From: Nitrospinota bacterium | Lineage (GTDB): Bacteria; UBA8248 | Length of the DNA: 32,613 nucleotides | Reading direction: 5' to 3' | Assembly: GCA_030754595.1 (NCBI GenBank) | Contig: JASLZZ010000043.1 | Coordinates: 1 to 32,613 of the forward strand | Shown here: positions 8,516 to 29,501 of the stretch, piece after piece | Position numbering within the stretch: position 1 is the stretch's first letter | Layout of the letters: the number at the start of each line of letters is the position of its first letter | Translations under genes and position numbers: made by a program | Notes under the pieces: model-generated | The model's database searches: none | The model's input: only the letters and a program-made list of their open reading frames with translations | Told to the model about the DNA's origin: nothing

Positions 8516-9160
8516 CTAGGCGCCCACACCCGCCCCCTGCTCGGCGAGCAACTCGGCGAGCAATAAATCGATCCGAGGCTTCTCGGTCCAATCCGCCTTA
8601 TAAGCGATCTTTCCCTCTTTATCGATGATGAACACCATGTTCGGCATCCGGCCATAGGCCTCTACCGTCGTCTCCTCCAAATCATCCACCAGAACGGGAA
8701 CCTTCATCCCGAACGATTCGACGAGCTCCGTCGCATAGCCGAGCTTGTGTTCGTAGGAGGTGTGCTGCATGTACTTCTTGAAATACCTCCGCTCGCCCGC
8801 ATGAGGCTCCTTCGAGTAGATGACGAAAAACTCAACATCCTTGTCCTTGTATTTCTTGTGGAGCTCTTCCATGCCCGGCACCTGCCGGCGGAAGGGAGGT
8901 CACGTGATGGCGCCGAATTCGATGACGACGTTCTTCTTCCCGACAAAATCGGCGGAATTCACCTCGGAGCCTTCGGTGGTCTTGAGGATGAACGAGGGAG
9001 CGTCGTCGCCGGGCTGGAGCAGCTCCTGAAACGCCTTGTGGCGAACTTTCCTAAAACCGCCAAGTTCGCGTTTGATTACCCGGATGGGATCGAGGTACCA
9101 GATACTCCACAGCCCTCCAAGAGGGCCGGGCGGCCTGCCGAAATGTTCCTTTTTCTGCAT
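8516..9160 (-). CDS. Iodothyronine-deiodinase-like thioredoxin-fold selenoprotein (Sec at UGA 8902-8900)
   Basis: ORF-track pieces 8900..9241 and 8516..8881 are in one frame: PGDDAPSF...VVIEFGAIT-UGA-PPFRRQV...FFVIYSKEPH...YGRMPNMVFIIDKEGKIAY, matching the deiodinase motif FGSxT-U-PPF...IYxxEAH. ATG 9160 has an AAGGAG RBS; 214 aa. Confidence 0.88.
8866..8899 (-). promoter_or_regulatory. Candidate bacterial SECIS hairpin
   Basis: After the UGA: cctcc-CTTCC-g-CCGGC-aggt-GCCGG-gcat-GGAAG; the loop starts 16 nt after the UGA. Confidence 0.7.
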
Positions 9161-9308
9161 GAAGTGTCTCCTTCCGCACTTTCGAGAAAAGCCCTTTGAA
9201 TTCAAACCAAAGGCCGTTTGGGTAGGCGAAAGACTATTCATTTCGGCAAAATTTGTCGAGAAGGAGGCGAAAATATCGATCTCGCCGGCTCCCCTCCCTT
9301 CCCGCCGG

Positions 9309-9337
9309 TTGAGCCCTCCCCTCTAAACGCATATGAT
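9309..9337 (+). promoter_or_regulatory. Putative sigma70 promoter
   Basis: TTGAGC-N17-TATGAT; supports ATG 9378 (GGAGG RBS) rather than 9333. Confidence 0.45.
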
Positions 9338-9377
9338 ACAAGGTGTTGACCACTGTCGGCTATTTGGAGGATTTCTC

Positions 9378-9860
9378 ATGCACCCGCTTAAGATAGCTCT
9401 AATCGGTATCGTCGTTGCCGCCTCGCAACTTTCGCCGAACGATTTTCCCGGAACCGTTTACTCCCAGGACAAGGGCAGCGGCGAGCAAAGCGGAGAAGGG
9501 ACAACGAAAAAAATCGACCCGAAAGTCGCCGAGAAACTTCGCCAGGCGCGGATTAAGGAAACCCGAAAGAAAATATCCAACATCGGCACCCTCATCGAGA
9601 GCATCAACGAAAAGCTCGATCTCAGAACATCGCAACAGGGGGATTTCGATCAAAAGCGATCCCTCGAAAACCAACTTCGAGACCTGACCACTCTTTTCGC
9701 GCTGACCAATCAGGCGCTCACCGAGGTCGAACGCCTCTCCCGCGAGGTCGGCGTTATCAAGCGAAACTCCCGGAAGGGCCTGCGCGACTCCCGCCGTCTC
9801 CAGCTCGCCAACTTCCTCGAGGCCCGGCGGCAGGAGTACATCTTCTTCGCCACCAGATAG
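9378..9860 (+). CDS. Hypothetical exported/anchored coiled-coil protein
   Basis: GGAGG RBS, hydrophobic N-terminus (KIALIGIVVAA), low-complexity linker, heptad-like helical body; no family recognised. Confidence 0.65.
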   Translation: MHPLKIALIGIVVAASQLSPNDFPGTVYSQDKGSGEQSGEGTTKKIDPKVAEKLRQARIKETRKKISNIGTLIESINEKLDLRTSQQGDFDQKRSLENQLRDLTTLFALTNQALTEVERLSREVGVIKRNSRKGLRDSRRLQLANFLEARRQEYIFFATR

Positions 9861-9879
9861 TGGAGACCGGAGGCGTTCC

Positions 9880-10695
9880 TTAGTCCGCCCTCCGTTCGTA
9901 TACGACCCACGACACATCCGCCGCGCGCCGGAAACCAAGGCTGGTGAAAACGCGCGCCGAGGGCGCGTTTCCATCCACGATGTAGCAGTATACCGGCCGG
10001 CCTCGTTCTAACTGAATCCGCGCCAGCGCCGACGCCACCCGGCGGCCCAGCTTTCGGTTCCGAAATTTTTCAAGGGTATGAAGCATCCCGATCGATCCGT
10101 TGTCGTGAACAATCATGTAGGCAGCGAGCTCGCCCCCGACGCGAACGGCGGCGTGAGGCGCCCGGGCAATGCGTTCCGACACATAACTCTCGATTTCACC
10201 GTAATCGGCAAACTTCGAAACAATGGGGATTTCATCCTCCCGGATGCGACCGACAGGGGGGCCCTCCTCGAAAGGAGTAAATTCCTCCTCGGACAGCGTG
10301 AAGAGTCCGCAACCGTTCTCCCGGACCAGGGACCGCTCGCGGGCGAGAATGTCGCGCATTTCCGGAGGAGCGGCGTTCAGTCTCAGAACGCAATTCTCCC
10401 CCTCCGGAGGCAGGTGCCTCGGCTTCTCTCCCGCCGCATCCATTTCAGCAGCCATTTTTTCAAGATTGCCCAGGTGCTCGACAGCCGCTTCGGGGGACCC
10501 GAGAAGACCGAGCCGGCCCATGGTTCGGTGGACGAGGAGCGAGGGGCTCTCCTCATCATCCACCCACAGCCGCTCCACTCCCCCGGATTCCGCTAAGGTG
10601 CCCTCGATCCGGAGACTGAAAGGGCGGTTCTCTTCAAGAAACCGCCCAAATGCCGGCGCATCGAATCTTTCAAGCTTCCGAAGAGTCACATACAT
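9880..10695 (-). CDS. GNAT-family acetyltransferase (FR47/GLYAT-like C-terminal domain)
   Basis: GSIGMLHTLEKFRNRKLGRRV motif A and YCYIVDGNAPSARVFTSLGF motif B. Start is uncertain (ATG 10695 or TTG 10731). Confidence 0.82.
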   Translation of the reverse strand: MYVTLRKLERFDAPAFGRFLEENRPFSLRIEGTLAESGGVERLWVDDEESPSLLVHRTMGRLGLLGSPEAAVEHLGNLEKMAAEMDAAGEKPRHLPPEGENCVLRLNAAPPEMRDILARERSLVRENGCGLFTLSEEEFTPFEEGPPVGRIREDEIPIVSKFADYGEIESYVSERIARAPHAAVRVGGELAAYMIVHDNGSIGMLHTLEKFRNRKLGRRVASALARIQLERGRPVYCYIVDGNAPSARVFTSLGFRRAADVSWVVYERRAD

Positions 10696-10792
10696 CTCCC
10701 CAAGGGTCGGTGTAGCCGGGATTCTATACAAATTCGAGGACCAATGGTGTATGAATTGTGTTCAATCTTTTCAATCACCGCGAGGAGCGTTC

Positions 10793-11860
10793 ATGAAAAA
10801 CTACCGCATCGCCGTCATTCCGGGGGACAATATCGGCCCCGAACTCATGAAAGCGGCCCTCGCCGTCCTAGAGGCCACGCAAAAGGTGGACGGGGGCTTC
10901 ACACTCGAATTCGAGACCTGCCTCGCGGGAGCGGCCCACTACACTGAACACGGAACCGCCATGAGCGATGAGGCCATAGCGGCCTGCCGCGCGGCCGCCA
11001 GTGTTTTCAAGGCCCCGGTGGGCGACCCCGCCGTCCGGACACCGGAGGGGATCGAGGCCGGCCTTCTCGGCGGGGTGCTCAGGACCGGCCTTGACCTTTA
11101 CGCCAACGTGCGGCCCGTCAAGCTTTATCCGGGCACTCCCACCCCGCTGCACGGATATCAACCGGGCGGTATCGACTATGTGATCATCCGGGAAAACACT
11201 GAGGGTCTTTATGCCTCGCGCGGCAAGGGAGTCGGCGGTCCTAACGCTATGGCCGATACGATGATCGTCACCCGGGCGGGCACCGAACGCGTTGTCCGCT
11301 TCGCATTCGAGGCGGCGAAAAAACGCAACGGCGCACCGGCGGACGGTGTTCGCCGGGTGACCTGCGTCGAGAAAAGCAATGTACTTCGCTCTTTCGCCCT
11401 TTTCCGCGAGATTTTCCTCGAGATCGCCGGGGAATACCCCGGGGTCGAGGCCGAGACCATTTACCCGGACGCCGCCGCCCAAGCCCTTGTCATGAATCCC
11501 GCCCACTACGACGTTCTCGTGATGGAAAATCTTCTCGGAGATATTCTGAGTGATTTGGGCGGCGGAACCATCGGCGGCCTCGGAATGTGCCCCGGGGGAA
11601 ATATCGGGGACCAATACGCCTACTTCGAACCCGTGCACGGCTCAGCCCCCGATATCGCGGGCCTAGATATCGCCAACCCGGCAAGCCAAATTCTCGCGGG
11701 AGCGATGATGCTCGATCACATCGGCGAGGAAAGCGCCGCCCGGCGAATCGAGAGCGCCCTGTGGCTGGCTCTCGAGGAGGGGGAACTCTCCATCGACGAG
11801 CGCGGGCGCGCCAACCGGGGCACCATGTCCGCGGCCGAGGCGGTCATCGCCCGGCTCTGA
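10793..11860 (+). CDS. Isocitrate/isopropylmalate/tartrate dehydrogenase family protein
   Basis: IAVIPGDNIGPE, LDLYANVRP, IIRENTEGLY, EKSNVL, ENLLGDILSD, FEPVHGSAPDIAG; GAGGAG RBS before ATG 10793. Confidence 0.92.
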   Translation: MKNYRIAVIPGDNIGPELMKAALAVLEATQKVDGGFTLEFETCLAGAAHYTEHGTAMSDEAIAACRAAASVFKAPVGDPAVRTPEGIEAGLLGGVLRTGLDLYANVRPVKLYPGTPTPLHGYQPGGIDYVIIRENTEGLYASRGKGVGGPNAMADTMIVTRAGTERVVRFAFEAAKKRNGAPADGVRRVTCVEKSNVLRSFALFREIFLEIAGEYPGVEAETIYPDAAAQALVMNPAHYDVLVMENLLGDILSDLGGGTIGGLGMCPGGNIGDQYAYFEPVHGSAPDIAGLDIANPASQILAGAMMLDHIGEESAARRIESALWLALEEGELSIDERGRANRGTMSAAEAVIARL

Positions 11861-11934
11861 GGATTGAGACTTTCAGACGGGAAGACACCAAATCTTACGG
11901 CCCATACGGGCACGGAGGCGGATAGGCTTTTCGA

Positions 11935-12642
11935 TCAGTCCCAGAAACGGTAGCGGATGAGCGTCCAGATAGCGGCGGCGCCGTCGCGCCAGGTGACTTT
12001 TTTCCCTTCCTCGTAGGAGCGGCCGTAGTAGGAAATCGGCATCTCATAGACACGCCACTTCTTGGCCCTGAGAATTTTGGCGGTGAGTTCGGGCTCGATG
12101 TCGAAGCGCCGGGATCGAATCTCCAGCCCCTCGATCACCTCCCTTCGGAACATTTTGTAGCAGGTTTCCATATCTGTCAGGGTGCAGTTGAACAAAACAT
12201 TGGTGATGAGCGTCAAAAGGTGGTTCCCCATCTTGTGCCAGAACATGTGCACGCGCTGGGGCTTTCCTCCGAACCGTGAGCCGTAGACAACATCCGCCAT
12301 ACCCCGTTCGATGGGTGCGATGAGTTCGGGAAACTCGGCCGGGTCGTATTCGAGATCGGCATCCTGAACAACGATGACGTCCCCCGCCGCCGAAGCGAAG
12401 CCGGTCGTCAGAGCGGCCCCCTTCCCACGGTTTTCGGGATGCCGAAACACCCGCACTCCTTCGCCCTCGATGCCGGCGAGGATCTCCCTCGACCCGTCCG
12501 TGCTCCCGTCGTCCACGATGATGATCTCGATATTCATCGGAACCGCAAGCACCCGCGTCACAATCTCGGCGATGGTGTCCCGCTCGTTGTAGCAAGGGAC
12601 GATGACGCTCAGAAAAAGGCCCTCATGGCCGGATTCGCTCAT
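11935..12642 (-). CDS. GT2 glycosyltransferase (polyprenol-phosphate mannosyltransferase-like)
   Basis: SVIVPCYNE, IVDDGSTDGS, NRGKGAAL, QDADLEYDP, VYGSRF, TDMETCYK, EPELTAK. Confidence 0.93.
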   Translation of the reverse strand: MSESGHEGLFLSVIVPCYNERDTIAEIVTRVLAVPMNIEIIIVDDGSTDGSREILAGIEGEGVRVFRHPENRGKGAALTTGFASAAGDVIVVQDADLEYDPAEFPELIAPIERGMADVVYGSRFGGKPQRVHMFWHKMGNHLLTLITNVLFNCTLTDMETCYKMFRREVIEGLEIRSRRFDIEPELTAKILRAKKWRVYEMPISYYGRSYEEGKKVTWRDGAAAIWTLIRYRFWD

Positions 12643-13223
12643 TCGATCTCCGTGTTTATCTCATCGAGGGCATCCAGGATCATTTCGGCGTCGGCGTGGC
12701 CCGAAGCGTCACGCCCCCGCCACGCCCAGAGCAACATAACGTCCGGGCCGATGATGAACGCCCCCGGCAAACGAAAGCGATCGCCGACGGGAAGCCCCTG
12801 GCGGTGCCCCCTGAAGAAAGCAAGGGCCCCCCTCCAGACGGAGCGGAAACTGTGCATCCTACCGATATTTCCCCGCTCGAGGCCATAGGCCTCATACGCT
12901 TCGCCCGAAGGGTCGCCCAGACAGGCGAACGGAAAATTGAACATTTCGCATACCGGCGCCGCCGACACGCCTTCAGCGGGGTTGACCGCCACGACCCCCG
13001 CGCCGCGCTCTTAGAACTCCGCCTTGTGCCGGCGCAACTGCGCCATCTGCTCGCGGCAGAAGATTCACCCCAGATGACGCAGGAAAACGAGAACAATAGG
13101 ACCCTCTTTCCACAAGTCCCGGAGGCGGATCGGCCGGCCTTCGGCGTCCTCAACCGTGGCTTCCGGCGCCGGAAGACCGGCCAGGAATTCTCCCGGCACG
13201 GCCGCTTTATTATTCACGTTCAT
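12639..13223 (-). pseudogene. PRXL2/AhpC-TSA-like (SelU-like) selenoprotein gene with UxxC, carrying an extra in-frame TAA (pseudogene or sequence error)
   Basis: One frame reads LRDLWKEGPIVLVFLRHLG-UGA(13067-13065)-IFCREQMAQLRRHKAEF-UAA(13013-13011)-ERGAGVVAV...FPFACLGDPSGEAYEAYGL...GDRFRLPGAFIIGPD...GHAD. Its stop overlaps the GT2 start (ATGA). Confidence 0.75.
13027..13064 (-). promoter_or_regulatory. Candidate bacterial SECIS hairpin
   Basis: After the UGA: atcttc-TGCC-gcgagcagat-GGCGC-agtt-GCGCC-GGCA; the loop starts 25 nt after the UGA. Confidence 0.6.
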
Positions 13224-13432
13224 TTTCGCCCCCGAGCCCTCGTGTTTATCAGCGAGGGCATCATACGGCAAGAAACAGGAGACCGCTAAAAGCGGAGCCT
13301 CAAAAGCAAGCCTTCAAAGGAAAACCGGGGGGAGCGGGCGCGGTTGGCAACAGGCGGCGGCGCATGCCAATATCGATCCGGCTGATATCGGCCCACTCGG
13401 GACGCCTTCCAAATCTCAAGGAGGAATTCGCC

Positions 13433-14104
13433 ATGCCTCGGTATATCGACATCAGTTGCGAGATCAGGAGCGAGGTGCCCATCCCTCCGGGAGTTCCGCA
13501 AAAAGTGAAGCACACCACCGGTTTCCGCGGTCCCGACAAGCATCACTGGCAGGCCACCTGGCTCGAGATGAGCGCCCATACGGGGTCGCACGTGGACAGC
13601 ACGCTTCACGTAAAAAAGAATGGCCCCGCCATCGGCGAGGCGGATTTTCACAGCTACATGGGCGAAGCGGTCATGCTCGACCTCACCGAGATGGGCGAGC
13701 CCAACGCCAGGATGACGCGGTCCCATTTCGAGGGGATGGAGGAGAAGTGCCGGCCCGGTGATATCATCGTCGTCCGGACCGACTGGGGCCATAAGATGTT
13801 CGGGACGCTTGAATACTATACCGAATCGCCCTATATCGACGTCTCGGCGGCCGAGTGGCTTGTCGAGCAACAACCCAAGGCCATCGCCTTCGATTTCTTC
13901 GAGGAATACGACGCCCGCCGAACCGATTTCGACTCGAGCGAATTCTATGTCCACCATGTCATGTTGGGCGCGGACGTGGTCCTCATCGAAGGGCTCGACA
14001 ATCTGGATCAGATCGGCCAAGACCGCTTTTTCATGATGGCGCTGCCGATCAAAATCATGGACGCCGAGGCATCGCCCGTCCGGGCCATCGCCATCGTCGA
14101 CTGA
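13433..14104 (+). CDS. Cyclase-family metal-dependent hydrolase (kynurenine formamidase-like)
   Basis: HTGSHVD metal motif, GDIIVVRTDW, LIEGLDNL, ALPIKI...EASPVRAIA; AAGGAGG RBS before ATG 13433. Confidence 0.92.
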   Translation: MPRYIDISCEIRSEVPIPPGVPQKVKHTTGFRGPDKHHWQATWLEMSAHTGSHVDSTLHVKKNGPAIGEADFHSYMGEAVMLDLTEMGEPNARMTRSHFEGMEEKCRPGDIIVVRTDWGHKMFGTLEYYTESPYIDVSAAEWLVEQQPKAIAFDFFEEYDARRTDFDSSEFYVHHVMLGADVVLIEGLDNLDQIGQDRFFMMALPIKIMDAEASPVRAIAIVD

Positions 14105-14114
14105 GGAGATCCAC

Positions 14115-15236
14115 ATGGCATCCCGGCTTCTCGATCACGTGCGCGAGCTTTGCGCCCTTCCCGGCCCGCCGGGCCGGGAGGGACTCGTCAGCGACCGGAT
14201 CGCCGGCATTCTCGCCCCGGCCGCCGACATTCTGCGCTCCGACGCCTTCGGCAACCTCATCGCCAGGCACTCCGCCGTGGACACGGTTCCGCACGTGCTG
14301 ATCGAATGCCACATGGACGAGGTGGGTCTCGTCGTCAACACCGTCGAGCCGGGCGGAGCGGTGCGATTCGATAAAGTAGGCCTCGTCGCGGACGCCGCGT
14401 TTCCGGGCCAGGCGTTCGACCTGCTTACCGGGGACGGCGCTCTCCACCGGGCGGTGGTCAACATCCTGGCCGGTCATCTGCAAGCCCTTGGCGGACAGGA
14501 ACACCCCACCACCCGGGATATGTGGCTCGACATGGGCGGGCTGGACGGCGAGGGCGTCCGCGCCCTGGGGATAGGCCCCGGGACGCCGGGCGTCTTTCAC
14601 AGCCCCTTCGAGGAGATGGCCGGCGGCGCATGGAAATCCAAGGCGGTGGACAACCGCGCGGGCTGCGCCCTGTGCATCGAAGCGTTTTTGAGCAGCCTGG
14701 CCCTCGCGGACCACCTCCGCCTCAGCGCGGCGTTTTGCGTCCAAGAGGAACTCGGCGCCCGGGGGGCGTCGGCCCTTTCGGCGAGTTTCACCGCCGGAGG
14801 CCAGGCTCCCGATCTGGCCGTCGTGATCGACACCGTGGGCGCCGAGGGCCCGGAGGGCGTCGCCGACGCTTTGGGCGTCCGCCTCGGCGGAGGGCCTGCT
14901 CTCAGGCGCTACGATTTTTCGCCCGGAAGCCGCCTCGGCCACGTCCCTCCGGACGAAATGGTCGATTGGGTCCGGCGCACGGCGGAGGGCGCCGGCGTTC
15001 CGCTTCAAGAAGACGCCTACGTGGGGACATTCACCGACGCCGCGACCCTGAGCCGCTCGCTGCCGGGCGGGCTCCCCACCGTGGTGCTGAACCTCCCCCG
15101 GCGAAACGCGCACAGCCCCTCGGAAATTTTCTCTGAATCCGACCTCGACGCGCTCGCCGCCCTCATCGGCGCCCTCCTCCGCACCGCCGCCGAGGGCGAT
15201 TGCCCGCGTCTCGGGAAAGACTACAAGGAATCCTGA
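14115..15236 (+). CDS. M42-family metallopeptidase
   Basis: GPPGRE, DAFGNL, HMDEVG, KAVDNRAGC, VQEELGARGA, TDA, RNAHSPSE. Confidence 0.9.
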   Translation: MASRLLDHVRELCALPGPPGREGLVSDRIAGILAPAADILRSDAFGNLIARHSAVDTVPHVLIECHMDEVGLVVNTVEPGGAVRFDKVGLVADAAFPGQAFDLLTGDGALHRAVVNILAGHLQALGGQEHPTTRDMWLDMGGLDGEGVRALGIGPGTPGVFHSPFEEMAGGAWKSKAVDNRAGCALCIEAFLSSLALADHLRLSAAFCVQEELGARGASALSASFTAGGQAPDLAVVIDTVGAEGPEGVADALGVRLGGGPALRRYDFSPGSRLGHVPPDEMVDWVRRTAEGAGVPLQEDAYVGTFTDAATLSRSLPGGLPTVVLNLPRRNAHSPSEIFSESDLDALAALIGALLRTAAEGDCPRLGKDYKES

Positions 15237-15266
15237 CGCTTTCTTTATTTGAAAGGACATTTTTCG

Positions 15267-16106
15267 GTGCCCCAAACCATACGCGTCGCGCACAGCCCCG
15301 ACTCCGACGACGCCTTCATGTTCCACGCCCTGGCGAACGACAAGATCGACACGGGCGGGTTTGAATTCGTCCACGAACTCCACGATATCGAGACCCTCAA
15401 CCAGGCGGCCTTCGAGGGCAAGTACGAGGTCAGCGCGGTGAGTTTTCACGGCTACTGCCACATCGCCGGCGGCTACGCCATATTGCCTCACGGAGCGAGC
15501 TTCGGGGACGGCTACGGGCCGGTCATCGTCACGCGCGAGCCGATGACCAAGGAGGCGCTTCGCGGAGTCGAAATCGCGGTGCCGGGCCTTTTGACAACGG
15601 CCTATCTGACGCTTCGCCTTTACATGGGAGGCGATGAGCCCAGCCGCCGGGTCGTTCATTTCGACCGCATCATGGAAGAAGTGAAGAGCGGGGCGGCCGC
15701 CGCCGGAGTGCTGATCCACGAGGGGCAGCTCACCTACGAGGCGGAAGGTTTTCACCTCGTCGAGGATCTCGGCATATGGTGGAAAAAAGAGACGGGAGGT
15801 CCCCTCCCCCTCGGGTGCAACGTCGTCCGGAAGGATTTGGGGGCCGAAACCGTGCGCGCGGTGAGCCGCGTCCTGAGCGAAAGCATCAACTACGCGCTCG
15901 ACCACAGGGAGGAGGCCCTCGATTACGCCATGACCTACGCCCGCGATCTCCCGCGCGCCAAGGCGGATACTTTCGTCGGAATGTATGTGAACGACTGGAC
16001 GCGCTCCTACGGCGACGCGGGCCGCGAAGCCGTCAGGACCCTCCTCTCCCGGGCGGGGAGCGCCGGGATCGTCCCGGAAATGACCGATCCGGAGTTCGTG
16101 GACTAG
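15267..16106 (+). CDS. mqnD: 1,4-dihydroxy-6-naphthoate synthase (futalosine menaquinone pathway, MqnA/MqnD family)
   Basis: AHSPDSDDAFMF, DIETLN, GDGYGP, PGLLTTA, LIHEGQLTY, PLPLG, FVGMYVN; GTG start with GAAAGGA RBS. Confidence 0.88.
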   Translation: MPQTIRVAHSPDSDDAFMFHALANDKIDTGGFEFVHELHDIETLNQAAFEGKYEVSAVSFHGYCHIAGGYAILPHGASFGDGYGPVIVTREPMTKEALRGVEIAVPGLLTTAYLTLRLYMGGDEPSRRVVHFDRIMEEVKSGAAAAGVLIHEGQLTYEAEGFHLVEDLGIWWKKETGGPLPLGCNVVRKDLGAETVRAVSRVLSESINYALDHREEALDYAMTYARDLPRAKADTFVGMYVNDWTRSYGDAGREAVRTLLSRAGSAGIVPEMTDPEFVD

Positions 16107-16168
16107 GGGCGGTTTCTCCGCGGGGCAAACCTCTCGGGCGGGCGTTTTTATTAAAAAGGAGTTTTCAA

Positions 16169-16549
16169 GTGTTCGAAGGAATTCACCATATTTCCATCGC
16201 CATGGACGATCTTGAGGAGGGGCGCGATTTTTACGCGGGCCTGCTCGAACTGGTCGAAATCGATAGGCCCCCGCTGCCTAATCCCGGTTACTGGTTCCAG
16301 GTCGGCGCGGTCCAGCTCCACTTGACGGAAAAATCTTCGTCCAATGGAACCGGCGATATCCCCGGAACCGGCGCGGGAAAGACCCATTTCGCTTTCATGG
16401 GCGGCGATCTCGAGGACGTGAAGCGGCGGCTCGAAACGGCGGGCATCTCCGTGAAGGACGGTGTCAATTCCGCCATCGGCATGCGCCAGCTCTTCTTCAA
16501 GGACCCGTCCGATAACCTCGTCGAGGTATTCGCTCCCCTGAACTCCTAA
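16169..16549 (+). CDS. VOC-family protein
   Basis: IHHISIAMDDLEEGRDFY...QLHL...HFAF...QLFFKDPSDNLVEV; GTG 16169 with AAGGAG RBS. The longer ORF-track start overlaps mqnD. Confidence 0.9.
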   Translation: MFEGIHHISIAMDDLEEGRDFYAGLLELVEIDRPPLPNPGYWFQVGAVQLHLTEKSSSNGTGDIPGTGAGKTHFAFMGGDLEDVKRRLETAGISVKDGVNSAIGMRQLFFKDPSDNLVEVFAPLNS

Positions 16550-16805
16550 CGCTCGCCGGAGCGACGCGCTGAAATTGAAAACCTCCGAATCGGAGGCGAA
16601 ATCCCGTTTTGGAATGGACCGTAGGCGTTGGCCAAAATCCAGAATATTTTGTCCCCCCTTGAGTATGATATATTCTTTTCGTTCCTGGAAAAACATTTTA
16701 ATGTCCATTATGGATTCATCCTTATCGAAGGAATGTTAATCCAAGGATACGGATATTTAGTCAAGAATAGGGGGGAGCGAAACCTTTTGAAGGAGCGGAA
16801 GACAA

Positions 16806-17306
16806 ATGGAGAATGCCGGAATGTGGAGACAATTAGCCTTGTTTATTCTGGCCATCGGTTTTGTCAGCGGTTGCGTCAGAATCAATGACGACCTAGGCCA
16901 AGTGTTCAGATACAAGCACCCGAAAATAGGAGCCCGGAAAAAGGTCATGCGCAGCATAGCCGGCAGTTTGAAGAACATCAAAATCGCCACCGAGGCCGGC
17001 GGCGGAGTCGGGCCCATGCGCAAGATCAAGTGGGCGGCCCAGGACATCGCCAAGAACGCGCGAAAAATCCGGGGCACCTTCAGGCACAGAACCATGGGCG
17101 GCGTCACCAGGTCGACGAGCAAGGTCTGGGATAACTAGAGCGGATTCACCCAAACCGCCGGCAACCTGGCCGCCTCGGCCGAGATTCTGGCGATGGCCGC
17201 CGACGGCGGAGACACGTCGGGCGTCAAGAACGGCATCAAGACCATTGGCGCCAACTGCGGGAAATGCCACAAATCCTTCCGGGTGAAGAAGAAGATGAAA
17301 AAATAG
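16806..17306 (+). pseudogene. Lipoprotein cytochrome c' (class II) interrupted by an in-frame TAG at 17136-17138
   Basis: Lipobox FVSG-C; RKKVMRSIAG; TRSTSKVWDN-UAG-SGFTQTAGNL...IGANCGKCHKSFRVKK. The C-terminal CxxCH (17256-17270) lies after the stop in the same frame, and a terminator follows 17306. Confidence 0.82.
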
Positions 17307-17328
17307 ATTTTTTGATCCCCGCACCAAG

Positions 17329-17366
17329 AAACTCCCCGGCTCTCCTCGAGCCGGGGAGTTTTTTTC
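17329..17366 (+). terminator. Rho-independent terminator
   Basis: aaactccccggctc-tcctc-gagccggggagttt followed by a T-run. Confidence 0.85.
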
Positions 17367-17530
17367 GGCCGAATTCCTTTTGTTTAGGGAGAAAACACAC
17401 AGCCCGCCTTTTTTCGGCTACCTCATTAATCTAACCGTTTACAAACCATTTATTTCTTGACTTCTACTCCAGCGGAGATACCATTCGTCGTTGCGGTTGC
17501 GGGTATCTTACTGAACTCAAAAAAAACAGG

Positions 17531-18082
17531 ATGGAGGATGAAAAGTTGAAGGAGAATTTTTCCACAGAATCCTTCAAGGACAAATACGAGAAGGAGGCGC
17601 GGGTCAACATCGATCTTCGCAAGGCGCTCGATTTGATGGAGGAAGCGGAGAAATCCCATGAAAATGGCGATATCGAACAGGCCATCGAACTCTACAAAGA
17701 ATCCATCGCCTACTGCCCGACGGCGGACGCACATACCTATCTCGGCTGGATGTACAGCATGCAGAGTCGCCTTGAGGAGGCAATAGAGGAGTGCCATCAG
17801 GCGATCGAGGTCGACCCCGACTTCGGCAACCCTTACAACGACATCGGCTGTTATCTCCTCGAAATTGACGAGATAGACGAGGCCGAGGAGTGGTTCAAGA
17901 AGGCAAAGCGGGCGCCGCGCTACGAACCCCGTCATTTCCCCTACATGAATCTTGCCCGTGTTTACATGGCCAAGGGCCAACACGGCAAAGCCTTGACGGA
18001 ACTTTACCGGGCCCTCCAGATTGAACCCGGCGAAGAGACGCTCCAGCGTCAGTTCGCCGATTTGCTTGCCTTGCTCAACTAA
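17531..18082 (+). CDS. Tetratricopeptide repeat protein
   Basis: PTADAHTYLGWMYS...AIEVDPDFGNPYNDIGCYL...PRYEPRHFPYMNLARVY TPR pattern. Confidence 0.9.
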   Translation: MEDEKLKENFSTESFKDKYEKEARVNIDLRKALDLMEEAEKSHENGDIEQAIELYKESIAYCPTADAHTYLGWMYSMQSRLEEAIEECHQAIEVDPDFGNPYNDIGCYLLEIDEIDEAEEWFKKAKRAPRYEPRHFPYMNLARVYMAKGQHGKALTELYRALQIEPGEETLQRQFADLLALLN

Positions 18083-18102
18083 CCAATTTCACAAAAAAAT
18101 GT

Positions 18103-18140
18103 GGCCGGTCCGGATTTATCCCGGACCGGCCGTTTATTTC
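18103..18140. terminator. Bidirectional terminator between convergent TPR and cupin genes
   Basis: GGCCGGTCCGG-atttatc-CCGGACCGGCC, 11-bp perfect stem, with an A-run upstream and T-rich sequence downstream. Confidence 0.75.
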
Positions 18141-18162
18141 TTAATGAAACAGTTCGCTGGCA

Positions 18163-18612
18163 CTAGCCGGGAATGCGATCCCGCTTGTCCTCTTCCTGCC
18201 AGGCTTCCTCGACGTAGATTGTGCGCGCGGCGTCGCGGTTCGCACAGTTGCCGTATGTGAAAATTAACTCGGCGTCCTCCGTCTCGCTCGGATTGTAGAG
18301 GCCGTGAATCTCGCCCGCCGCCGCGTAGACGAAATTCCCCGTCTCGACAGTGTGCTCCTCCTTTTCCTCCCCCATCCAAACGACAAGAGGACCCTTTGCG
18401 ATATAAAAAGTGGCGTCGCAGACATGGTAGTGGCGCTGGTTTCTTCCCTTGGGCGGGATAATGGTGCGGCCCATGGTGATCGTCTGGGTCCCCACCACAT
18501 GACTATCCACGCCCCAAGCGATGATCAGGGGCGGCTCGTATTTCTTGTCCACCCCGATGGCGGTGGAGTCAATGACGGCCCATCGTTGTTTTTCGGATGC
18601 CTTTACGTTCAT
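18163..18612 (-). CDS. Cupin-domain protein
   Basis: IIPPKGRNQRHYHVC...FYIAKG...GNFVYAAAGEIHGLYN; ATG 18612 with GGAGAAGGA RBS. Confidence 0.87.
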   Translation of the reverse strand: MNVKASEKQRWAVIDSTAIGVDKKYEPPLIIAWGVDSHVVGTQTITMGRTIIPPKGRNQRHYHVCDATFYIAKGPLVVWMGEEKEEHTVETGNFVYAAAGEIHGLYNPSETEDAELIFTYGNCANRDAARTIYVEEAWQEEDKRDRIPG

Positions 18613-18694
18613 TCCTTCTCCTTTAAAAAATCTGCCTTCAATAAAACGCAGCCAATCGCCGAACGGCGGTTTCGATGCGAGGATATTCGGTTCG

Positions 18695-19486
18695 TTATGC
18701 AATGCCCAGGAGGCCGCGCGATCCTGATTCGCCGGATGAGACGCCCGAGGACTTGATAATCTGGAGCGCCGACTGAGACGATTTTTTCGCCTGAACGAGA
18801 GCGGCCACGTTCACCTCGAGAAGTACCCGGTTCTTGACGAAATCAACTGTCGTCTCGGCGAAATCCGTATCGCGAATAGCGCTTTCGCTGGCCCGGAGGT
18901 TTTCGGCCTCGACACTCTCGCGCCGTATGTCCGCCTCGAGGGTATTCGTTTGATGCGAGCCCAGATTGCCGCGGAAAGTGGAAAGTTCCTCAATCGCCGA
19001 ATCGACGGTGTCGAGCGCCTGCTGCGCGCCGTCAGAGGTTGAGAGGTCGATATCCTCTAGGCTCCGGCCGATTTCGGCGAGGCCGGAGGAGTCCACGCCG
19101 CGAAGGGTACGGGAGACCGAATCTACCGAGGATCGGGCCGAGGTCTGGTTCGCCGTGCGAGCCGCCTGGTCGGTGGCGCCCGTGTTAAGCGCTTCTAGGG
19201 CCCGATCGCGGATGGCGTGAAGCTGATTGAACGTCTCGCCGAGTTTGGCGTCCTCTGTCCTGAGTTGGTTCACCTTGTTTTGATTGCTCTGAATGTTCCT
19301 GTCGAGGCTGTCGGTTTGAGCCCTGAGGTTTTCGCTGATGACCAGGCCGGCCGGATCGTCGGCCCCGCTGTTGACCCGCTGTCCCGTCGAGAGCTTTTCG
19401 ACGGAATTCGCCAGCGCCTTCTGTTTCGCCTGAAGGGCGCGCGCGGCGACCAGCGCGGCAATATTCTGATTGATTCGAAGACCCAT
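18695..19486 (-). CDS. Minimal, divergent flagellin-like protein (D0/D1 only) with a C-terminal extension
   Basis: MGLRINQNIAAL...EKLSTGQRVNSGADDPAGLVISENLRAQ at the N-terminus; AIEELSTFRGNLGS...ENLRASESAIRDTDFA at the C-terminus; AAGGAGG RBS; 263 aa. Confidence 0.9.
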   Translation of the reverse strand: MGLRINQNIAALVAARALQAKQKALANSVEKLSTGQRVNSGADDPAGLVISENLRAQTDSLDRNIQSNQNKVNQLRTEDAKLGETFNQLHAIRDRALEALNTGATDQAARTANQTSARSSVDSVSRTLRGVDSSGLAEIGRSLEDIDLSTSDGAQQALDTVDSAIEELSTFRGNLGSHQTNTLEADIRRESVEAENLRASESAIRDTDFAETTVDFVKNRVLLEVNVAALVQAKKSSQSALQIIKSSGVSSGESGSRGLLGIA

Positions 19487-19884
19487 TCAGGAACCTCCTT
19501 TATAAATCCTTTCCGGTTTCAGGCCGCCGACATCGAACCCTTTTCGATAAAGCGAGCCGCCATCTTCGGGTCCATCCCCCCTGGTGGGCCGGGCGAAACG
19601 CTCGCCTACAGGGGGCGGATCTTAACACCTTTCGCCGCGCGAAACCAAAAGCGAATAAATCAAAAAGCAACGATCGAAACCTCCATAAATCATTGAAATA
19701 AGGCCCTGATCAAGCCCGGTCAGTAAGAAATCCACAACGGCCGATGAGGAACGCTATACCACTCCTTTTTCGCCGAAAAAAATCTCCCGGACTCGCCCAT
19801 GGACATCCACCATTCATTCCGGGGCCCCAAGAGGACTCCCCGCGGAAGTTTCGGGCGCTCCTTCTTAATCCCGTTTACGGACTT

Positions 19885-19893
19885 TGCTATACT
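19885..19893 (+). promoter_or_regulatory. Extended -10 promoter element upstream of the DsbA-like gene
   Basis: TGcTATACT about 48 nt before TTG 19941. Confidence 0.4.
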
Positions 19894-19940
19894 GACTCGG
19901 CAAGAGCCGCTAATCGTTTCAACGGGAAAGGTGGGCGAAA

Positions 19941-20579
19941 TTGGCGAGAAAGAAAGAGCAAGCGAGAAAATCACAGACCTCTTCCAATAAAAATTCCCGG
20001 AAAACCCTGGCCGTGGCCATTGCACTCATTGCGGCGTTGGGCATCGGGTTGGGCTCACTCTGGGTCGGAGACGGCGGCGAAGCTCCGCCGACCATAACCT
20101 CCGACGGCCGCGTCGTCGTTCTCGAGTTTTTTGATTTCGGTTGACCCCACTGCAAGGACGCGCAGGGTGCGCTGAGTAAGCTCAAAAAGGAATTCAAGAA
20201 CCAAATCGATTTTCGCCACAAGGATTTTCCGCTCCGCCCCTTAACGGCCATGGCCGCCGAGGCGGTGAGGTGCGTCGAGGATGCCGCCAAACAAGACCAA
20301 ATGCGTGCCTTGGTGTTCGGAGGGCAGCGGAGGTGGAGCCTGAGCAAAGCGCCCCAGAACATCTGGGCCACCTACGCGGCGGCGACCGGAACGGCCATGA
20401 AAAAATGGCGCTCTTGCACATACTCTCGGACGCACAAAAAGGCCATCGAGGCCGACCGGACCCTCGGGTTCAATATGGGAGTGAACGTGACGCCAACGAT
20501 TTTCGTCGGAAACCGCAAACTCGTGGGCGCGGTCCCCTACAGGGACCTGGCCGCCGCCGTCCGCACTCAATTGAAATGA
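19941..20579 (+). CDS. Membrane-anchored DsbA-family selenoprotein (U-P-H-C; Sec at UGA 20142-20144)
   Basis: ORF pieces 19941..20144 and 20250..20579 are one frame: TM anchor...VVVLEFFDFG-UGA-PHCKDAQ...FRHKDFPL...AAEAVRC...RSC...GVNVTPTIFVG (cis-Pro loop); 212 aa. Confidence 0.88.
20145..20177 (+). promoter_or_regulatory. Candidate bacterial SECIS hairpin
   Basis: After the UGA: cccc-ACT-gcaaggac-GCGC-agggt-GCGC-tg-AGT; the loop starts 19 nt after the UGA. Confidence 0.6.
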
Positions 20580-20607: not shown

Positions 20608-21069
20608 GTGCGCATTCTCATCTGGCTCCGACATCCCGGCGCCGCCCTGGCCTCCCGGGTGATTGTCGGTGGCTTTTTCATCGTCACGGGAGCGGCGAAA
20701 CTCTACCAGCCCGCCGGGTTGTTCGCGAATCAAATAAAATCCTTCGGAATCCTGCCCGGGGGCTGGGAGCCGCCGCTCGCCGCAATTCTCCCCTGGCTCG
20801 AACTGGTTGCAGGCGTTTTCCTGTTCGCCGGATTAATGTCGAGGCGGGCGGCCGTCCTCATCGGACTCCAGCTTGCCCTTTTCGCGGCGGCCCTTTCGGC
20901 GGCGATGCTCCTCGGGACGGCGCCGGAGGATTGCGGTTGCCTGCCAGGAGTCTCCGAGACACCGGCCCAGGCCCTCGTCCGGGACGCCGTCATGATCGCC
21001 TGGCTGATCGGCTCCTATCGCGGATTGCCCGGATACTTCTCGTTGGATCGGTGGCTCGAGACGGACTGA
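20608..21069 (+). CDS. MauE/DoxX-family redox-associated membrane protein
   Basis: RVIVGGFFIVTGAAKL...LPWLELVAG...EDCGCL...ALVRD; the CGC motif is typical of MauE. Confidence 0.88.
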   Translation: MRILIWLRHPGAALASRVIVGGFFIVTGAAKLYQPAGLFANQIKSFGILPGGWEPPLAAILPWLELVAGVFLFAGLMSRRAAVLIGLQLALFAAALSAAMLLGTAPEDCGCLPGVSETPAQALVRDAVMIAWLIGSYRGLPGYFSLDRWLETD

Positions 21070-28229: not shown

Positions 28230-29501
28230 TCATCCCGTGTACTCGAGGATATAGAGGCCCAGCCCCCATCGGTCGCCGAGATAGATCAGCCCGGTCTGGG
28301 TGTCCACGAATACATCGTTGGCCTGGATGAGCCAGCGCTCCTCGTTTCCGGCGGGAATATAGTGACCCACCTCCCTGGGCTGGAACGGGTTCGACCAGTC
28401 CACGATGCGGAGTCCGGCCCCGTACCAGCAGATGTACATCGGATCGTCGGCTGTCATGTCGAGCCAGACGTTGTGCGCCCCGTAGCGCGAGCCGAGCTGG
28501 GACCAGTACGGGTCCCTGGGCCGCATCGAATCCGGATCTATCTCGTAGGGATGAAACGTCGAGATCGGAAGCGGGGCCTCGTGGTACCGCATGTCGTAGA
28601 AAGTGACAAAGGCGGGCGGATGGGCGCAGTTCATGGTGACGCACTCGGTGGTGACGATGGCGAACTCCGAGCCCGGGGGAACGAGAAAAGTGTGGTAGCA
28701 ACCCGGCCAGCCGTGGGTTTCATGGGGGTTGTGGCGCCACATGAACTCGGGCTCGCGCGGGTCGGTCATGTCGAACATGGCGATCCCCCCGTTCCAGAAG
28801 CCGCAGGTGGCGTAGTTTCCAAAAGGGTTCGCCTCGTGGAGCCAGACCCCCCAGCCAAGTTGTTCGAAATCCCACGACGGCGTTTCGCCCGCACCCTCGT
28901 TTTGCCCCTCGATCCAGCACTGCGACAACAGCTCGGGAGCCGAGGGGTTCTTCACATCGTAGGTCCAGAGCACCTTCCCCCGGCAACCGTCCTTGAAACC
29001 CGAACAATAGAGCAGATCGCGATTGCGGTCGTGAATCGGCCGATGAATCCCGCGGCCCTCGGTCTCGATATAGTTGATGAGTCGCGGATTGGCGGGGTCG
29101 CTCAGATCGAACATGCGCATCCCGCCGATGAGCTCGGGATCGTCCGACTCGGGCCGCTTCTCGCTGTTGGTGTAGAGAACGTCTCCGACGAGGAGAATCT
29201 TGTGGGTCCGGGCGCCGGGCGGGTCCGAAATCTGGTTGACGACCTTGGGTTTCGATGGATTCGACACGTCGAGAATCGTGAGCCCGTTGTGGCCGTTCGC
29301 TCCCGAAGCGGCGACATAGGCGAGGCCGTCCCGGACCTGTATTTGGAAGGTGTCGCCCCATCCGTTCAGATCGGAGTGCCCGACGACGCGGACGTTTTTT
29401 TTGTCCTCGGCGACCGGGCCAGTGAGTATGCTGGGCTCCTGATCGTAGGGAACCATGGTGTCGAGCGCGCGTGGCGGAAGTCTGTATTCGGGCTTCGGCA
29501 T
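28230..29501 (-). CDS. LVIVD-repeat beta-propeller protein
   Basis: KNVRVVGHSDLNG, GLTILDVSNP, GMRMFDLSDP, GIAMFDMTDP, GLRIVDWSNP, GLYILEY repeats. Confidence 0.87.
   Translation of the reverse strand: MPKPEYRLPPRALDTMVPYDQEPSILTGPVAEDKKNVRVVGHSDLNGWGDTFQIQVRDGLAYVAASGANGHNGLTILDVSNPSKPKVVNQISDPPGARTHKILLVGDVLYTNSEKRPESDDPELIGGMRMFDLSDPANPRLINYIETEGRGIHRPIHDRNRDLLYCSGFKDGCRGKVLWTYDVKNPSAPELLSQCWIEGQNEGAGETPSWDFEQLGWGVWLHEANPFGNYATCGFWNGGIAMFDMTDPREPEFMWRHNPHETHGWPGCYHTFLVPPGSEFAIVTTECVTMNCAHPPAFVTFYDMRYHEAPLPISTFHPYEIDPDSMRPRDPYWSQLGSRYGAHNVWLDMTADDPMYICWYGAGLRIVDWSNPFQPREVGHYIPAGNEERWLIQANDVFVDTQTGLIYLGDRWGLGLYILEYTG

Follow-up and report, generated by a model that had tools for sequence, protein, structure and literature searches.

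Selenocysteine (Sec) containing proteins of the deiodinase-like, Prx-like and DsbA/DsbG-like types were all reported in 2005 (PMC1088965), where the bacterial deiodinase-like proteins were expected to have a different function. More recently, a database of bacterial selenoproteins (BSepDB, 2026; PMC13326102, Table 2) listed three genomes of the UBA8248 lineage with 54, 50 and 48 selenoprotein genes, its top entry having 63, and a preprint described that MauE replaces DsbB in Escherichia coli via a CXC motif (bioRxiv 10.64898/2026.03.05.709764). We analyzed a stretch of 32,613 nucleotides of a Nitrospinota bacterium (contig JASLZZ010000043.1 of assembly GCA_030754595.1; the window in the following) that contains three thioredoxin-fold genes with an in-frame TGA codon within 12 kb: a deiodinase-like gene (gene 1), a SelL-related Prx-like gene (gene 2) and a DsbA-class gene (gene 3) that is followed by a gene encoding MauE. 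From the sequence comparisons described below we hold it probable that these genes are unrelated and transcribed separately, and that they use ordinary bacterial recoding in a Sec-rich marine bacterium of the UBA8248 type, gene 1 encoding a redox enzyme, gene 2 being a pseudogene and gene 3 encoding a DsbA-class enzyme that is paired with MauE. Two Sec genes that are intact and a third that is a pseudogene, all from families described before, are an ordinary observation for the UBA8248 lineage, whose richness in Sec had been published earlier; new here is the Sec-DsbA-MauE pair, and this is the part worth following.

The genome that holds the window (G000; the window is its contig C43) measures 3.55 Mb and is 96.9% complete and 6.4% contaminated. 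The close relatives of gene 1 belong to Nitrospinota/Nitrospinae or Ca. Tectomicrobia, one of them (FO_M_Nitrospinota_01) being placed in UBA8248 by BSepDB, and the DNA of the window is present in marine and seawater metagenome runs. The search for selA, selB, selD and tRNA-Sec that had been proposed in the initial annotation recovered all four: the three genes score above the TIGRFAM cut-offs in a profile search, selD itself carrying an in-frame TGA, and the tRNA-Sec has 97 bases. A 90-base tRNA-Gly(TCC) call on contig C94 was discarded as spurious, its acceptor stem being mismatched. With this machinery SelD would supply selenophosphate, SelA would charge tRNA-Sec and SelB, on a hairpin located 16-25 nt downstream, would bring Sec to the UGA, a course of translation that is suggested by sequence features.

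The three TGAs were confirmed in the contexts GAIT-U-PPF, RHLG-U-IFC and FDFG-U-PHC, and the assignment to thioredoxin-fold families likewise held, with Pfam matches that span or flank each TGA. Homologues were expected to have Cys or UGA at the site, which is what we found. In the alignments, TGA occupies the site in all 32 spanning matches of gene 1 (30 loci, identity down to 38%), in all 14 distinct loci of gene 2 and in all 16 matches of gene 3 (15 close loci; the gene 3 counts cover 17 of 30 loci), each count including G000 itself. More distantly, TGC and TGT occur in two gene 3 loci, Cys occupies the Sec site in 108 of the 127 spanning relatives among the best 150 distant representatives of gene 1, and for gene 2 Cys at the site is known only via the family models and PDB matches. 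The presence of the machinery, the conservation of the codon and the Cys in distant gene 1 relatives together support Sec recoding at all three TGAs.

A small hairpin was found downstream of each TGA, with a G at loop position 1 or 2 and located 16 to 25 bases past the UGA; this G at the loop start fits the consensus given in PMC13188914 for the bacterial selenocysteine insertion sequence (SECIS). A small apical loop with a G at 16-37 nt after the UGA is present in all three cases, gene 3 being the weakest. The synonymous codon identity over codons +4 to +11 exceeds that of the two flanks for gene 1 (0.74 vs 0.54/0.52), gene 2 (0.81 vs 0.51/0.51) and gene 3 (0.64 vs 0.43/0.40), and the Gln codon at the hairpin loop is CAG without exception. 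In the gene 1 hairpin, 3 of the 6 pairs show change on both sides (13 cells), which was reached by none of 500 shuffles, although the pairing slid by one column (+1) scores 0.221 vs 0.252. The folding energies give good support for the hairpin of gene 2 (z below -1 in 12 of 14; mean z -2.1 with respect to synonymous recoding) and moderate support for that of gene 1 (z below -1 in 16 of 31). Of the coding-flanked TGAs in the whole genome, 40 of 145 are followed by a strict hairpin, compared to 2 of 92 TAA and 7 of 173 TAG codons.

Gene 3, which matches the Pfam families Thioredoxin_4 (PF13462) and DSBA (PF01323), shows the characteristics of the DsbA class: a U-x-x-C motif, a helical insertion, a T-P loop (T-P-T) and a predicted anchor, the latter read from hydropathy only (a basic N-terminus and one hydrophobic helix at residues 24-42). 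It has an invariant second Cys pair (C111/C159), and its solved relatives by PDB sequence match are ScsC-like proteins, DsbAs and BdbD. The MauE gene that follows after 28 bases is the only one in G000. A close gene 3 orthologue is present in 11 of 25 genomes of the family, all of which also have MauE next to it, while neither was found in the other 14; DsbB was recovered from none of the 41 genomes searched and VKOR was not found in G000 or in 5 relatives. The pair also occurs in G039, a genome that shares only the domain and belongs to another family, and in metagenome locus L286; within 80 metagenome loci (12 without readable site) MauE was found in the flanking sequence retrieved for 2 of 4 Sec-form DsbAs vs 1 of 64 Cys-form DsbAs. 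At the level of the genes, this conservation shows the pairing of gene 3 and MauE.

Because gene 3 and MauE are adjacent and co-absent, and no DsbB or VKOR was found, the two may constitute a selenium-containing periplasmic disulfide relay. Gene 3 would then encode a periplasm-facing DsbA-class enzyme whose Sec68-Cys71 pair reacts with exported proteins by exchange and is then returned to the oxidised state by the C-G-C loop of the adjacent MauE, the electrons passing from substrate dithiol to Sec68-Cys71, to the MauE C-G-C and on to quinone. The direction of the electron flow, from gene 3 to MauE, is inferred by analogy from the MauE preprint, and a PF02621 gene in the window points to menaquinone as the putative quinone. 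We are evenly divided over the full proposal, i.e. that gene 3 and MauE would form a dedicated disulfide-forming relay with a Sec-Pro-His-Cys selenenyl-sulfide re-oxidised by MauE, which has spread to distant lineages, is maybe fused in G039, and here resides in a genome whose selenoproteome, once its unlisted families are included, comes near the published maximum. If true, a Sec-DsbA tied to MauE puts selenium into periplasmic oxidative folding, where oxidation is not expected from its chemistry; the pair offers a direct test of what a DsbA gains from Sec, and MauE, whose pathway was described only recently, would acquire a cognate partner.

In G039 (L053:427-2190) MauE stands between a DsbA(Sec) and another DsbA(Sec) domain and shares its frame with the latter, so this may be a MauE-DsbA(Sec) fusion. 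No longer, fused MauE proteins were encountered among 8000 candidates, which is weak evidence.

Several observations weigh against the reading given above. With respect to recoding, the hairpin energy of gene 3 is weak (z below -1 in 6 of 16, mean z -0.5), and a loose SECIS model has no discriminating power, accepting 93 of 150 random TGAs and 7 of 13 nonsense controls besides 54 of 57 candidates. At the gene 1 site, Gly or Trp stands in two database entries (P0003, P0005), which probably reflect a read error and a code-4 gene call. The sole RNA sign is one 173-base contig across the gene 1 UGA (run X20, depth 3.9), which may be DNA. With respect to the relay, the 14 genomes of the family without MauE, some of them single-contig, also lack a recognizable DsbB and the Sec-DsbA-MauE module is therefore accessory; three of these 14 keep a distant Sec-DsbA without MauE, the kin genomes are not independent of each other, and G000 has a Cys ScsC-like DsbA on contig C71 that is a possible MauE client. 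In addition, a Se-S bond is usually more stable and less oxidising than an S-S bond, a poor fit to an oxidase.

Some of these observations favour a different role for gene 3, namely that of a periplasmic Sec reductase or isomerase (ScsC/DsbG-like) or of a single-substrate enzyme, with MauE driving it in the opposite direction or serving another DsbA. In the PDB, the sequences that match gene 3 most closely are copper-resistance ScsC-like proteins; a site with Sec tends to be a reducing one, and both the absence of the module from 14 of 25 genomes of the family and the Cys DsbA-type gene on C71 would agree with such a role. It is contradicted by the strict adjacency and co-presence with MauE and by the P-H-C active-site spacing, which is presumably that of the DsbA type. 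Moreover, MauE has been tested as an oxidising substitute of DsbB (bioRxiv 10.64898/2026.03.05.709764). We consider this role of gene 3 possible but rather doubtful.

Gene 1 matches PF00837, PF08534 and PF00578, the first with 66.8 bits vs a cut-off of 27, and likely starts at the ATG at 9160 and not at 9241, according to the alignment and an upstream AGGAG. The protein has no Cys besides Sec87 and no transmembrane or hydrophobic helix. In the alignment to 9H48 it corresponds to mouse Dio2 at FGSATCPPF and YIDEAHP, and a comparison of 27 sequences showed no variation at T86, U87, Y115, E118, H120 and H133. The predicted structure (pLDDT, the predicted local distance difference test, of 87) retrieved ResA/TlpA-type chains first by E-value, with Dio2 and Dio3 at the top or equal-top query TM-score (0.62 and 0.60). 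Gene 1 would thus encode a soluble single-selenol redox enzyme of the deiodinase family in which Thr-Sec-Pro-Pro and a Tyr/Glu/His relay have been retained, and which would depend on an outside thiol because it has no resolving Cys; its reaction may be the reduction of a halogenated aromatic or of a peroxide/disulfide. A second Sec paralogue of gene 1 is located on contig C110.

The proximity of the three genes had been taken as a special feature, a view that is not supported: G000 has five places where three candidate Sec genes share a stretch of 11.3 kb, and at least one such triplet appears in 47% of random placements. That the three form one functional selenium/redox cluster is improbable. 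The triplets are commoner than random (5 vs a mean of 0.6), and genes 1 and 2 lie at most 4 kb apart in four relatives (G001, G003, G008 and G009). However, the genes occupy opposite strands with unrelated genes in between, in G003, G004, G008, G012 and G014 gene 3 resides on a different contig, its linkage being kept only in G001, and 550 kb separate genes 1 and 2 in the single-contig G010. A promoter and terminator scan of the window remained at chance level (5 vs 3.7 and 25 vs 17.5, respectively). The three genes are separate units and not a cluster.

The initial annotation stated that the frame continues past each TGA and implied three functional selenoproteins; the first is correct for genes 1 and 3, while gene 2 is interrupted by a TAA and at most two of the three genes are therefore intact. 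Gene 2 matches PF00578 (AhpC-TSA) and PF13911 (AhpC-TSA_2), and its two halves score 62 and 56 bits with NF040769, where intact orthologues reach 130.7-136.7 bits (cut-off 120). The column of the TAA holds a sense codon in 13 orthologues (7 GAG, 2 CAG, 2 AAT, 1 AAA and 1 GCG), and among the 13 genomes with the gene only G000 combines the TGA with the TAA. The site is covered by contigs from metagenome runs X13 and X15, whose 16 and 13 differences from the window all lie elsewhere, and the TAA is therefore not an assembly slip; the two runs have common breakpoints and look like one data set, of another strain that is about 0.35% different. Gene 2 would thus formerly have encoded a UxxC Prx-like oxidoreductase and now be a pseudogene in this species. 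That all three genes are nevertheless functional, the TAA being an assembly error or read through, is likewise improbable. It would agree with the UGA, the hairpin and the frame on both sides being kept, with the 90% identity to the intact gene of G001, and with run X7, where 1 of 9 differences is unlisted, so that a sense allele is possible there. Against it stand the sharing of the TAA with the X13/X15 strain, the many other in-frame stops in the genome and the fate of the gene elsewhere: it was found in 13 of 42 genomes of the family and not in the other 29 (0 of 23 of one genus), and it is also split in G014 and G022.

Table. Positions, in the coordinates of the window, of the three recoded genes, their Sec codons and hairpins, and the MauE gene
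Feature	Position	Strand	Basis or remark
Gene 1, deiodinase-like selenoprotein	8516..9160	-	PF00837 over cut-off; 214 aa, Sec87 in GAIT-U-PPF
Sec codon of gene 1	8900..8902	-	TGA in 32/32 spanning matches; unchanged in X13/X15 contigs
SECIS-like hairpin of gene 1	8875..8888	-	5-bp stem, AGGU loop 16 nt past UGA
Gene 2, SelL-related Prx-like redox gene (UxxC)	12639..13223	-	Intact orthologues over NF040769 cut-off; in-frame TAA here
Sec codon of gene 2	13065..13067	-	TGA in 14/14 distinct loci
SECIS-like hairpin of gene 2	13030..13045	-	AGUU loop 25 nt past UGA
Premature TAA in gene 2	13011..13013	-	18 codons past TGA; missed by the initial annotation
Gene 3, membrane-anchored DsbA/ScsC/BdbD-class selenoprotein	19941..20579	+	PF13462/PF01323; U68-P-H-C71
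Sec codon of gene 3	20142..20144	+	TGA in 16/16 close matches, TGC/TGT in distant ones; unchanged in X7
SECIS-like hairpin of gene 3	20160..20172	+	5-bp stem, GGG loop
MauE membrane protein	20608..21069	+	PF07291; invariant C-G-C, Lys31, Glu65; proposed redox partner of gene 3

That the three TGAs are nonsense mutations of Cys codons, and the genes thus pseudogenes, is a reading to which we give practically no weight: G000 is rich in premature stops, 47 being in frame with paralogue support (18 TGA, 17 TAG and 12 TAA), and has two private TGC-to-TGA cases, but the same TGA recurs in 29, 14 and 13 other genomes at identities down to about 30-45%, the downstream frames are intact and the hairpins are conserved in relatives, a conservation by which this reading, as judged from the sequences, is already refuted. 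The two private cases were themselves rejected as Sec candidates. In the alignments of a cytochrome c gene with U-x-x-C-H on contig C65 and of a VOC gene on contig C131, G000 is the single row with TGA (among 26 and 20 rows, respectively); neither gene has a strict hairpin, and both represent nonsense alleles. A TGA at a Cys column, which had served as the test for Sec, is thus not sufficient: 2 of the 6 candidates tested in relatives are private nonsense alleles, and conservation in kin must therefore be checked for each candidate. Of the 47 in-frame stops, some of which are gene boundaries or antisense matches, 29 are TAA or TAG and several are at Glu or Gly columns; mutY is present in G000 and mutM was not found there, and this is possibly a case of recent gene decay with G-to-T bias. 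G000 exhibits both annotation errors, about 59 Sec genes cut at the UGA and true nonsense alleles that resemble Sec.

The presumed richness of the organism in selenoproteins was borne out by a census of G000, for which a coding model, a hairpin filter and a paralogue search were combined and checked by NCBIfam and Pfam. Of 86 candidates submitted to NCBIfam, 29 were dropped (27 gene ends, antisense frames or non-Cys stops and 2 nonsense alleles). The census comprises 59 candidates: 52 in known families (those for which Table 1 of PMC13188914 or the name of an NCBIfam entry records a Sec form), 4 in unlisted families and 3 further ones; most of the 52 are candidates by family match, in a genome with the contamination level given above. 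The known families include 14 AhpD/CMD, 6 Grd/Prd, 4 OsmC, 4 Prx-like, 3 UGSC and 3 DsbA members. At least two census genes are broken (gene 2 and an OsmC fragment), which leaves 57 candidates vs the published top of 63. Independent family searches gave 10 CMD and 8 AhpC-TSA matches with an internal TGA, all of which were already in the census. The commonest bacterial selenoprotein, Sec formate dehydrogenase, was not found (0 of 13 molybdopterin matches with an internal stop). The richness is no novelty, as the UBA8248 entries in Table 2 of BSepDB make the Sec richness of the lineage already known. Routine mis-annotation is also evident: 42 of 45 database matches of gene 1 are halves of 117-132 residues and both gene 3 matches begin past the UGA.

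Three further loci were noted. A mer-like locus (L124:1070-4133, contig C94) has five candidate Sec genes, one with two consecutive UGAs and one with U-P-F-T-U. The sequence C-L-U-I-E-U-G-R with a strong hairpin lies in frame upstream of yhaM (L134:1201-2010, contig C62; outside the census), and an S-P-T-U-G-L-C protein (L129:1201-1722, contig C114) found no counterpart in Pfam or NCBIfam at the thresholds applied.

Four families that are conserved in kin appear to be Sec families absent from the 119-entry table of PMC13188914: a CoA-transferase-like alpha subunit (TGA at the Cys column in 19 genomes; Cys in 5 paralogue rows), the YccU CoA-binding protein (TGA in 5 genomes of the genus; Cys in 20 rows), a tandem DUF427 protein (TGA in 15 genomes) and an FGE-domain protein (TGA in 6 of 20 loci). 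A gene string on contig C122 (L103:1201-4107) contains the CoA-transferase-like alpha (Sec) gene, a beta subunit, a Cys alpha paralogue and YccU (Sec); the closest solved relatives are 5MZW-5N03, and in the CoA-transferase the Sec aligns with the Glu mutated to Ala in PDB 6COJ, which we take to be the catalytic Glu105 of IpdA. In the FGE-domain gene (L147:1201-1875, contig C119) the UGA is five codons ahead of the stop and the hairpin lies past the stop codon, its sequence varying among the six UGA genomes. The tandem DUF427 protein (L121:1201-1986, contig C50) has its UGA in the first domain, where four class-level relatives have His; neither the strict nor the loose SECIS model gave a hairpin for this gene, whose downstream sequence is conserved nonetheless. 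No paper on a selenoprotein CoA-transferase was found in a literature search whose coverage excludes some recent selenoprotein surveys, and one match for selenoprotein and DUF427 concerned, by its retrieved text, DUF4277 instead.

Two other genes of the window may be mentioned. An isolated 263-aa flagellin-like gene upstream of gene 3 (18695-19486, minus strand) encodes the N- and C-terminal helical domains only and has a 21-base insertion in one strain. An LVIVD-repeat protein (28230-29501, minus strand) gave a weak, sub-cut-off match to SBP56 (selenium-binding protein).

When the locus is compared with the described systems, gene 1 resembles the known bacterial deiodinase-like selenoproteins (PF00837; PMC1088965; Table 1 of PMC13188914) in having Sec at the deiodinase site within T-U-P-P-F/Y, a Y-x-x-E-x-H motif, a bacterial SECIS and an open reading frame that is split by gene callers. 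It differs from them in being a soluble protein of 214 aa that carries a helical extension at its N-terminus and lacks another Cys, and remains under the cut-off of NF038285 (104 vs 250 bits); three residues before the Sec it has Ala, where Dio2 has Ser. Gene 2 is like the SelL-related/Prx-like UxxC selenoproteins (NF040769; the 'Prx-like protein' of PMC1088965) in its UxxC motif and in its orthologues, which exceed the family cut-off, but the premature TAA in this allele makes the full protein impossible. Gene 3 shares UxxC in a DsbA-class fold with the DsbA-like form 1 and DsbG-like selenoproteins (PMC1088965; PMC13188914), and is unlike these in being of a membrane-anchored ScsC/BdbD type that is tied to MauE (NF041057: 44 vs 190 bits). 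A literature search, with some recent key papers outside its coverage, found no paper linking selenoproteins with MauE. The MauE of G000 corresponds to that of the preprint (bioRxiv 10.64898/2026.03.05.709764) by its C-G-C, the conserved Lys and Glu and a genome in which DsbB and VKOR were not found; the residue following CGC is Leu here and Phe in the preprint consensus, and the cognate DsbA carries Sec in G000, whereas the main text of the preprint contains neither 'selenocysteine' nor 'Nitrospin'. Finally, G000 belongs by its close named relatives to the same lineage as the UBA8248 genomes of BSepDB and has a similar count (52 in known families); the search behind BSepDB was confined to known families, whereas four conserved families of G000 fall outside the table of PMC13188914.

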